Below are positions 9,766-12,801 of a stretch of 64,000 bases of DNA, in pieces. How positions within the stretch are numbered: the stretch's first letter is position 1; each line of letters opens with the position of its first letter. Under the pieces are notes generated by a model. The model had not been told where the DNA came from. It was given only the letters and a program-made list of their open reading frames with translations, and did no database searches. Position numbers and translations under genes: made by a program. The stretch spans positions 57,970,001 through 58,034,000 of the forward strand of contig OX597831.1 in NCBI GenBank assembly GCA_951406725.2. The letters run 5' to 3'. The stretch comes from Octopus vulgaris (taxonomy: Eukaryota).

Positions 9766-10042
9766 CATATACCCTCCAGCCTTTATCAGGTGTTTTGGAG
9801 AAATTTTGAAACCTGAGTTCTCATTTCTAAGATATTTTTCGATATTATTATTATTGTTCAGGTCACTGCTTGGAATCGAACTTGGAATCTTGGGGTTAGT
9901 AGTGCACACTCTTAACCACTACACCATATCCTCAAGACACCTGAAGAAGGCTGGAGGGTATATCAGCCAAAACGTGTTTACAACAAACAAGATGAGGACC
10001 AATATCCGTCGAATGTAAATAATGTGAATAATGTAAATAATG
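9766..10042 (-). mobile_element. Composite tRNA-head/hammerhead element with inverted arms, copy 1
   Basis: Minus-strand A/B boxes (tggtgtagtggttaag; gttcgattcc) between inverted cacCTGANGAaggctg...cagcc-(G/A)AAA arms. Confidence 0.7.
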
Positions 10043-10169
10043 CTAAGTCACATGTTCTAAACAAAAAGCACCATTTAAACTCAAACTATAAAGAGTTGAA
10101 AGAAACACCATTAAGTATTTTGTCTGCCATACTAAGGATTCTTCTTGTTCACTGCCTCAAACTAAAGGG

Positions 10170-10460
10170 TCAAGACCCCCTTCAGTCATCAATTAGCATG
10201 GAAAGTTCCTCTCTGAGGCACAAGCCTGGGCAAGGTGGTTTATGGAAGATCAGCAGTCGCCCATGCACACCAGCCTCCCCTCTTCACACCACTGATGTTA
10301 TCCAAAGGAAAGGCAAAAGCTGATACAGCTTGGTACCACTGACATCACAACTCATTTCTACAGCAAGTGAACTGGAGCAATGTGAAATAAAGTTTCTTGT
10401 TCAAGAACACAACACACAGCTCAGCCTGGGAATTGAACTTATGATTGTGAGCCTGACACT
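10170..10460 (-). mobile_element. tRNA/CORE-like SINE, same family as 35980-36305
   Basis: actggagcaatgtgaaataaag..ttgttcaagaacacaac is the inverse of a CORE-like block; shared tail. Confidence 0.7.
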
Positions 10461-10663
10461 AAACTTAAAATTTCTGTGGATGGGGATAGTTGATTACATC
10501 GACCCCAGTGCTGAAGTAGTACTCTTTTTTATCAATCCTGAAACGATAGAAGGCAAAGTCAACCTTGATGGAATTTGAACATAAAGAGCTAGAAAAAATG
10601 CCACTACGCATTTTGTCTGACATACTAATGATTCTGCCAGCTCACTGCTTTAATCTAGGATGA

Positions 10664-10779
10664 AATAATAATAATAATAATAATAATAATAATAATAATA
10701 ATAATAATAATAATAATAATAATAATAATAATAATAATAATAATAATAATAATAATAATAATAATAATAATAATAATAA
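10664..10779. repeat. (TAA)n microsatellite
   Basis: Directly visible. Confidence 0.98.
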
Positions 10780-11022
10780 GTGCTCATGGGAACTGCTCAT
10801 ATCCCAAGCAAAATACTTTCTATGTAATCTCAAGTTTTAAAACAAACATAATTTTCGTATGATTTTTTTTTAGACATTCACTAGTACAACACTAAGTACA
10901 AAACCAAATTTATGCCACCCTAGGCATAACACCAAAACGAACTTCCAACTTGTTGTCTCTTGAAGTGTCTGGGTGAGACTTGGAGCCAGCATGTGCAAAT
11001 GTAAAGCAAAAGTCAAACATAG
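10780..11022 (+). mobile_element. Short 5'-truncated R4/Dong-like LINE tail in (TAA)n
   Basis: VLMGTAHIPSKILSM* then 3' UTR, flanked on both sides by (TAA)n. Confidence 0.7.
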
Positions 11023-11067
11023 AATAATAATAATAATAATAATAATAATAATAATAATAATAATAAT

Positions 11068-11450
11068 AAAATACTTTCTAATTGATGTATCAATACCAGC
11101 AGATGACAACGTGTCTTTAAAAGAAATGGAGAAACTTTTAAAATACAAAAACCTCGAAATAGAGGTAACTCGAATGTGGAATCTAAAAACAGAAACAATT
11201 CCTATCATAGTAGGCACATTAGGTATGATAAAAAAAATATTCAGACAAATATATAACAAAAAACACCAGGACTTACAAATACATATAACATACAAAAAAT
11301 TGCACTACTGGGCACGGCACACATCCTACACAAAACACTTTCAATATAGAAACCATCAGAGCATCACAACAAACCACAGCACATACCCAAGGCACACAGA
11401 GCTGCGCTCGGTAGTGAAGTGAAAGCATGCTATAAAAATAAAACTACTGA
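11068..11450 (+). mobile_element. 5'-truncated R4/Dong-like LINE (REL endonuclease domain) in (TAA)n
   Basis: FLIDVSIPADDNVSLKEMEKLLKYKNLEIEVTRMWNLKTETIPIIVGTLGMI, then after a frameshift ALLGTAHILHKTLSI*; (TAA)n on both sides. Confidence 0.85.
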
Positions 11451-11510
11451 ATAATAATAATAATAATAATAATAATAATAATAATAATAATAATGATAAT
11501 AATAATAATT

Positions 11511-11740
11511 TATTTCTTTATTGCCCACAAGGGGCTAAACATAGAGGGACAAACAAGGACAGACAAAGGGATTAAGTCAATTACATCGACCCCAGTGCGA
11601 ACTGGTACTTTATTTATCGACCCCGAAAGGATCAAAGGCAAAGTCAACCTCGGCGGAATTTGAACTCAGAACATAATGACAGAGGAAATACTGCTAAGCA
11701 TTTCGCCCAGCGCGCTAACGTTTCTGCCAGCTCAACGCCC
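11511..11740 (-). mobile_element. SINE family A within (TAA)n
   Basis: Full-length inverse copy flanked by aataat arrays. Confidence 0.88.
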
Positions 11741-12394
11741 AATAATAATAATAATAATAATAATAATAATAATAATAATAATAACAGCAACAACAAAAAC
11801 ATCTAACCTTTGTTTCTTTTATGGCCACTGACCTCCAAGCAATTTAGCTTCACTGCAAGTTTTATATATTTAGACTGGAATTACTGAGAGAAACCTCCAA
11901 ATTCTAAAAAAAATGTCGATATGACCATTGTCTGCATCGAGTAAATAGTGAGATAGTTGCGGGGGAAAAAAGCACAATATTGATTTACCTACTTGTCAGT
12001 TGTGAGTCAGAAATCTGCTGATAGTGATTTATATCGGTTCAGAATAAAGCAATGAACAAAACATTCCGTTCTATATTGCTTCAGTTCACCTTGTTTTTAA
12101 GCAGAAGTACTAATAAGATCCTTCTGAAAAGTTCTCTGCAATTGACTGTTGTTTTATCCGGCAAAAGATGTGTCTCACATCTGCTTTACACCTTGAAAAC
12201 TGAAGCTAAATTACCTCTTTTCAAGAATTTTTTAGACCTTTGTTCTTTTATTCTTCTACTTGTTTCAGTAATTGGACAGTGGCTATGCAGGGACATTGCC
12301 TTGAAGGGTTTAGTTGGTCATATCGACTCCCATTTTTTAAAGTCTAGTACCTTTTCTTTATCAAATTCTATTTGTTGAAATGCTAAGTCACATT

Positions 12395-12801
12395 TCTATT
12401 TTAAGAGATGAGGAATTATGTACATTATTTACATTATTTACATTATTTACATTCGACAGATATTTGTCCTCATCTTGTTTGCAGTTAACTCAACCTTTCG
12501 GTTGATATACCCTCCAGCCTTCATCAGGTGTCTTGGAGAAATTTTGAAACCTGGGTTCTCATTCCTAAGATATTCTTCGATATTATTATTATTATTATTA
12601 TTATTATTATTATCATTATTATTATTATTATTTTTATTATTATTATTATTATTATTATTATTATTATCATTATTATTATTATTATTATTGTTCAGGTCAC
12701 TGCTTGGAATCGAACTCAGAATCTTGGGGTTAGTAGTGCACACTCTTAACCACTACACCATATTCCCAAGACACCTGAAGAAGGCTGGAGGGTATATCAG
12801 C
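12395..12801 (-). mobile_element. Composite tRNA-head/hammerhead element with inverted arms, copy 2
   Basis: Core nearly identical to 9766-9965 with expanded (ATT)n; the left arm is the inverse of the right arm of copy 1. Confidence 0.72.

Follow-up and report, generated by a model that had tools for sequence, protein, structure and literature searches.

A Penelope-like retroelement of Octopus vulgaris with a tRNA-derived 5′ head and a coding strand free of T4 runs: a candidate for Pol III transcription

Penelope-like elements (PLEs) are described in the accessible part of PMC8557442 as leaving an inverted truncated copy and a one-sided tail of 30-40 nt. In the case of PAc, the PLE of the anole, the available text of PMC11167929 reports two internal start sites of reverse transcription and nicking of both strands, as well as a hammerhead ribozyme that overlaps the start of the open reading frame (ORF), with uncleaved RNA as the main substrate. 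As concerns transcription, the accessible sections of PMC10886601 treat non-LTR retrotransposons as transcribed by Pol II and draw a line between autonomous non-LTR elements, which use Pol II, and short non-coding passengers, which alone use Pol III; Penelope is mentioned nowhere in those sections.

The repeat studied here was noticed in a 64,000-nt stretch of the O. vulgaris genome (the window), in which two copies of a composite element had been proposed from the sequence. The motifs named in that original prediction are all present, namely a minus-strand head with A and B boxes, a TAA tract, a spacer, a hammerhead-bearing arm and a tail of 9-nt repeats. In the terms used below, in which pLTR denotes the terminal repeat of the element and unit positions are counted along the repeat unit, the features are:

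9767..9843, minus strand: copy 1, spacer with the ORF start codon (9824-9822) and the 5′ half of the hammerhead, cut in stem II
9844..9858, minus strand: copy 1, short (TAA)n tract within the 5′ leader
9859..9929, minus strand: copy 1, tRNA-derived head, unit positions 5-75 (A box 9926-9916, B box 9881-9872)
9926..10041, plus strand: copy 1, inverted 5′-truncated pLTR copy, unit positions 129-247, short end; GAAA of the hammerhead mutated
10040..10054, no strand: target site duplication, first copy, 15 nt, partially overlapping the element end
12379..12393, no strand: target site duplication, second copy, the same 15 nt
12391..12581, minus strand: copy 2, spacer to tail, unit positions 91-272, long end; start codon 12562-12560
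about 12532-12487, minus strand: copy 2, minimal hammerhead, followed by in-frame 9-nt repeats and the 30-40 nt tail
12582..12692, minus strand: copy 2, expanded (TAA)n tract
12693..12767, minus strand: copy 2, tRNA-derived head, unit positions 1-75 (A box 12760-12750, B box 12715-12706)
12765..12801, plus strand: copy 2, inverted arm remnant, unit positions 134-170, cut before GAAA

The inverted arm indeed lies directly upstream of both heads (9926-10041 and 12765-12801), and the statement that every arm in the window is damaged holds for 4 of 4 arms, each mutated or cut. The sense arm of copy 1 stops in stem II and its inverted arm is devoid of the G of GAAA; the sense arm of copy 2 has changes in stems II and III and its inverted arm stops before GAAA. 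Both copies exist, as had been stated, and are 93-97% identical, but they cannot be counted as independent, since both have the same 15-nt target duplication, which lies at the outer ends that face inward, and the heads of both carry the same private change. No relationship exists between their remaining flanks. The two copies are best read as halves of what was probably one insertion, later partly duplicated and rearranged. Copy 1 together with 27 nt of flank interrupts an older remnant (window 9843-10100 and 9640-9766), which we take to be a tRNA-type SINE, and this suggests that copy 1 is a templated local copy of the original insertion. Between the two copies lie LINE 3′ fragments (11076-11450, plus strand), presumably of the restriction-like-endonuclease R4/Dong type, and TAA tracts (10664-10779 and 11023-11071). 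Elsewhere in the window, a long near-perfect inverted repeat at 32975-33305, which scores 99 bits on MIR5048 (below the gathering score), is probably a MITE-like element, and other tRNA-like heads (2926-2986, 16510-16566, 24725-24780, 25871-25930, 36239-36299, 38759-38816 and 58356-58415) probably represent unrelated SINE families.

A chance association of head and arms confined to this locus is excluded by the genome-wide counts of exact matches: a 22-nt motif from the arm occurs 6190 times and a motif from the head 1971 times, compared with 0 for the reversed controls. The family is dispersed in the genome (2.8 Gb, 227 contigs; 5986 first-look candidates), and the predicted constant link between head and ribozyme is seen in 81 of 93 position-ordered heads, which are followed by the arm. 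Several of the 12 heads without a downstream arm (loci L286, L325, L341, L342, L351 and L354 are of this kind) end in long TAA tracts joined to other repeats, and such heads either were disrupted secondarily or belong to a minor form that consists of the head alone.

Taken over 92 units, the column majority is 272 nt long and contains a minimal type I hammerhead, in which CUGANGA, stem II and GAAA are all intact, so that the consensus has the ribozyme core expected of it. This hammerhead consists of stem I, CUGANGA, one extra base, a five-pair stem II, GAAA and a palindromic two-pair stem III, the same features as those given for PLE hammerheads in the available part of PMC4209133. All core letters are kept in 16 of 76 arms. 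The assignment is based on the majority sequence: Rfam gave no tRNA or hammerhead among the best 150 of 183 window matches and none on two better copies. Free folding of heads and hammerhead pieces yielded uninformative z-scores, with one exception at -2.2.

Two loci picked by their heads have coding sequence upstream of the head, and in all 30 of 30 loci picked by the ORF end the head comes directly after the stop codon, the distance from the ORF end to the next head being about 35 nt. An upstream walk from the head led to a reverse transcriptase (RT), with RVT_1 matches of E 2e-10 and 8e-9 on natural ORF pieces. The C-terminus aligns across the GIY-YIG (PF01541) region of protein P0063 (E 6e-16), with no direct Pfam match for GIY-YIG in this part. 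In the column majority of the whole 2666-nt (2.67 kb) unit there is a single ORF of 2.4 kb, one frame of 787 codons. It starts with the ATG at unit position 110, inside the presumed spacer, and takes in the hammerhead, the 9-nt repeats, which are in frame, and the tail; this makes the head a 5′ leader. One natural copy (L229) holds head, TAA tract, ATG, hammerhead, tail and ORF in one piece, and the order of the element is head, (TAA)n, ATG, coding hammerhead, tail, RT and GIY-YIG-like ORF, about 35 nt, and head again. Pieces of the pLTR occur at both ends of full-length copies, and partial tandems are present.

The repeat unit is thus almost certainly the terminal repeat of one autonomous Penelope-like element. 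Its RT in a single ORF, C-terminal GIY-YIG (by alignment), minimal type I hammerhead in the pLTR, pLTRs arising from partial tandems, inverted truncated copy and one-sided 30-40 nt tail are features of endonuclease-bearing (EN+) PLEs, and it would be placed in the Penelope/Poseidon type by this architecture, not by a tree. The proposed involvement of Penelope machinery is therefore well founded, the RT and GIY-YIG-like ORF being joined to the head and arm unit in 30 of 30 ORF-end loci. For the same reason the unit is not a separate non-autonomous SINE with a borrowed Penelope tail. A comparison of 214 short with 69 ORF-attached pLTRs revealed the same majority letter at every compared position, which argues against a separate SINE lineage. 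As to SINE2 membership, a head with A and B boxes is found at the 5′ end, but the unit is not non-autonomous; a non-LTR retrozyme, made of head-to-tail tandem units without an ORF, does not fit copies that are dispersed and mostly form inverted pairs.

Natural copies are 85-95% identical to the majority, and none with a full-length intact ORF was found, the longest stop-free stretch being 310 aa in the 30 loci and the longest open frame elsewhere 569 aa; judging from these sequences, the family looks inactive or nearly so. A different PLE family, which is young (L181-L184, e.g., G000:C16:20835800-20840800) and was used by us only as a control, has an open frame of 781 aa that is intact in 16 of the 150 GIY-YIG matches listed, and is likely to have been recently active. 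Its terminal repeat contains what we take to be tandem CCAAT/CRE-like motifs and a TATA-like box.

The inverted arm had been taken as half of a fixed palindrome with a hammerhead on each strand. That would make the repeat an independent SINE, mobilised in trans, and the inverted piece found upstream of 66 of 93 heads is what one would expect of it; in 27 of 93 heads, however, there is no such piece within 750 nt. The inner edge of the inverted copy varies from a scrap of the tail to the whole pLTR or a piece of the ORF. In 60 of 68 inverted pairs (one locus was counted twice) one end lies at about unit position 272 and the other at 222-250, with the long end on either side (33 vs. 27), and 49 of 136 ends are at exactly position 272. 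Such variability of boundary, length and side is incompatible with a fixed palindromic consensus. A flanking direct repeat of at least 10 nt accompanies 44 of the 68 pairs vs. 3% of shuffled pairs. The inverted arm thus appears to be the known Penelope integration product, and the upstream hammerhead an antisense by-product of integration and not a second functional ribozyme. As the head is, moreover, part of an autonomous element, and short copies have no diagnostic differences from ORF-attached ones, we consider the palindromic SINE highly improbable.

The tRNA origin of the head, proposed from its boxes, is borne out by a profile derived from 25 different tRNA genes of the genome (isotypes Arg, Thr, Cys, Ala, Lys and Glu only), to which the head is the sole match in the 2666-nt majority (E 4e-6). 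Its best pairwise match is tRNA-Arg (z 8.2), and the letters of the A and B boxes, both intact in the majority, keep the tRNA numbering and spacing. The cloverleaf is lost, and the acceptor and T stems are largely unpaired. ARAGORN found no tRNA in the window or in 38 loci, and Rfam misses the head as well, so the assignment rests on the custom profile.

The 5′ ends of the 93 position-ordered heads are concentrated at the head start: 66 lie between -20 and +5, 12 further upstream and 15 at +6 or later. Among the 78 copies that reach the head, 66 stop there, compared with 17% expected from the truncation rate beyond -21 (P 3e-38), which indicates a hard 5′ boundary at about -7 to +1, although this wall could be inflated by the palindrome in which the head start lies and at which fold-back junctions are favoured. 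The modes are at -7, -3 and +1, and the ends at -11 to -17 are mostly fold-backs. These data bear on the view that the head, a relic of a captured tRNA or SINE, has no promoter role, the RNA being made by Pol II and the wall arising from RNase P-like processing or from fold-back at the position 1 palindrome. The mode at exactly +1 (10 of 93) and the many fold-back junctions agree with it, as does the Pol II-type promoter of Drosophila virilis Penelope. On the other hand, the acceptor and T stems are largely unpaired, both boxes have remained intact in the majority, and numerous ends either fall at -7 to -1 or show no fold-back and are flanked by unique sequence.

Among 99 copies that contain the junction of tail and ORF, the 5′ end lies in the arm in 62, in the TAA tract in 18, within the head in 3, at the head start in 6 and in the upstream ORF in 1, with 9 unclassed; hence 6 of the 7 ORF-bearing copies that reach the head start stop there. 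An extra tandem copy (L250) is outside this tally. Contigs assembled from four runs, which carry the labels of four organisms, extend over all 30 bins of the element but do not reveal transcript starts, strand or level; in two of these runs there are fold-back loose ends at the head start.

Pol III is stopped by a run of four or more T residues (T4). Consistently, 18 of the 25 tRNA genes are followed by such a run at a distance of no more than 25 nt. In the sense strand of the 2666-nt majority there is none. In 16 natural copies longer than 1.5 kb, 10 T4 runs were found in 32.8 kb, and this rate of 0.30 per kb in diverged copies differs little from the 0.43 that a T4-free master would be expected to reach by neutral decay. 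The rate is 1.7-5.9 per kb in eight control retroelement ORFs of the same genome (pooled P 3e-5; P 0.011 against the control with the lowest rate), these controls being other PLE and LINE families and not close sister families. From the control set, L151, L152 and L167 were dropped as microsatellite frames, and L185 and L187 were left out because they were not reclustered or fall into the families of L181 and L186. In a control PLE family that does have T runs, motifs resembling CCAAT, CRE and TATA boxes are found instead. Shuffling within the sequence gave P 0.007 for single bases, 0.024 for codons, 0.052 for synonymous changes and 0.088 for a Markov-1 model, so that these within-sequence controls are borderline. 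Runs of four G residues are rare in the controls also, and their absence from the element is therefore not special. The relic explanation gains from the borderline shuffles and is opposed by the gap to the eight controls; on balance, we regard it as unlikely.

The closest protein relatives, which are 59-74% identical to the element (P0001, P0003, P0006-P0008, P0010 and P0013), rank among the poorest in Phe of 98 homologs (2.2-2.7% vs. a median of 4.1%), so the scarcity of T may be a trait of the clade; these relatives could mark a wider clade that avoids terminators. One of them, P0010, keeps the hammerhead-encoded N-terminal motif. A search with P0010 returned only the tRNA-headed PLE family in the 30 loci examined, with no close sister family, and a metagenome scan yielded one distant PLE (L223, 36% identity), which is uninformative as regards the head.

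A restricted role of Pol III should also be considered, in which its products are the short pLTR RNAs alone, the coding RNA being supplied by Pol II read-through or by tandem arrays. This is the version closest to the original prediction, the short copies being SINE-like solo pLTRs. Short copies do dominate (6190 arm matches vs. 113 matches to the tail-to-ORF junction, obtained with different patterns), 12 of 78 copies continue upstream of the head, and partial tandems exist. However, such a role leaves the absence of T4 from the ORF unexplained, ORF-bearing copies start at the head as well (6 of 7), and no separate lineage of short copies is seen. We consider it a possible but clearly weaker account.

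We favour, with a probability of about 0.6, the reading that Pol III transcribes the whole coding PLE from the tRNA-derived head. Taken by parts, the use of Pol III for the short RNAs seems quite probable, and its use for the coding RNA is favoured by a smaller degree. In the proposed mechanism, Pol III would start a few bases upstream of tRNA position 1 (about -6) and read through the 2.7-kb unit, and translation of the uncapped RNA would begin at the ATG that follows the A-rich leader. The encoded protein would nick both target strands, and reverse transcription would start at two internal sites, at about unit positions 230-247 and at 272, as in anole PAc. Priming in the 5′ pLTR or on solo-pLTR transcripts would give short copies, whose synthesis ends where the RNA template ends at its 5′ side; the variable inverted arm, with one long and one short end, would result from head-to-head joining of two cDNAs, together with a target duplication of 10-16 nt. 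Against Pol III transcription of the coding element speak the translation of an uncapped Pol III RNA, which is unexplained, the small number of ORF-bearing copies that reach the head start (7, while 83 of 99 end further downstream), a head with neither a cloverleaf nor an Rfam or ARAGORN match, and the TATA-less, LINE-type promoter reported for D. virilis Penelope in the accessible part of PMC2377424.

Cleavage by the hammerhead is predicted to require a dimer or the help of protein, and would not be needed for the short copies. The predicted cleavage site lies about 23 codons into the ORF and is spanned by the short copies, which were thus copied from uncleaved RNA. In 12 of 52 junction copies the 5′ end falls just after this site (P 2e-4 vs. 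7% per 10 nt), with an 8-nt palindrome as a confounding factor. The cluster occupies unit positions 181-188 on this palindrome (loci L454-L542) and may be taken as a weak hint of self-cleavage.

In its fullest form, which we put forward at even odds, our proposal is that an autonomous PLE switched to a tRNA-type Pol III promoter, purged all terminators from its ORF, came to be translated from uncapped RNA and gave rise, through internal priming, to thousands of copies of its 5′ end that resemble SINEs; the Phe-poor relatives may constitute a whole Pol III-driven clade. If true, a self-encoding element on a tRNA promoter breaks the division between Pol II and Pol III elements, provides a natural Pol III mRNA with cap-independent translation, and opens a route to SINE-like families straight from a Penelope terminal repeat. 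The family, in whose thousands of copies a sharp landmark at the 5′ side is combined with target duplications and two sites of RT start, lends itself to tests of how Penelope inverted structures form. It is also a warning that solo pLTRs may account for part of what is annotated as tRNA SINEs in genomes of this kind.

The palindrome and the ribozyme are ordinary Penelope features; what surprises is that an autonomous coding element without terminators has a leader derived from a tRNA. A literature search, which covered little of the subscription journals and neither Repbase nor Dfam, where an entry may exist, returned no autonomous PLE with a tRNA-derived promoter. The arrangement is not mentioned in the main text of the octopus repeat annotation (PMC13282606, as far as accessible), the supplements and data deposit of which may hold the family, nor in the available parts of the cephalopod repeat survey PMC8967140 and of PMC5786205.

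According to the accessible parts of PMC11167929 and PMC8557442, PAc of Anolis carolinensis likewise has a single ORF with RT followed by GIY-YIG. The octopus element also resembles PAc and other Penelope/Poseidon EN+ PLEs, as described there, in the minimal pLTR hammerhead over the ORF start, the inverted 5′-truncated copy and the one-sided 30-40 nt tail. It differs from them in that its pLTR starts with a tRNA-derived head with A and B boxes and its sense strand is devoid of T4; no tRNA-like head is mentioned for EN+ PLEs in those parts of the two papers. In D. virilis Penelope, according to the available text of PMC2377424, an internal pLTR promoter sets a fixed 5′ end, as the putative octopus promoter would, but that promoter is TATA-less and LINE-like, with a downstream element and an intron, in contrast to the tRNA-type boxes of the octopus element.

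Pol III promoters derived from small-RNA genes, possibly through SINE insertion, are found in the terminal repeats of Helenus, Ajax and Cassandra (TRIMp3; PMC10886601, accessible sections), those of Helenus being tRNA heads. All three are, however, non-coding, non-autonomous LTR elements of 311-1263 bp, unlike the autonomous 2.7-kb coding PLE of octopus. In Schistosoma Sm-alpha and Sj-alpha a Pol III promoter is followed by a type I hammerhead, so the pairing of the two is in itself not new; those elements are non-coding and tandem, and the available parts of PMC6765202 and PMC8490949 describe no autonomous parent with the same promoter. Animal non-LTR retrozymes are, like the short octopus copies, short hammerhead-bearing derivatives of PLE pLTRs, but in the accessible part of the relevant report (bioRxiv 10.64898/2026.07.22.740005) they form tandem arrays, mostly in vertebrate genomes, whereas the octopus copies are dispersed inverted pairs with a tRNA head. 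What is new here is the tRNA-derived head with its A and B boxes, the 5′ stop at this head and the sense strand free of T4 runs.
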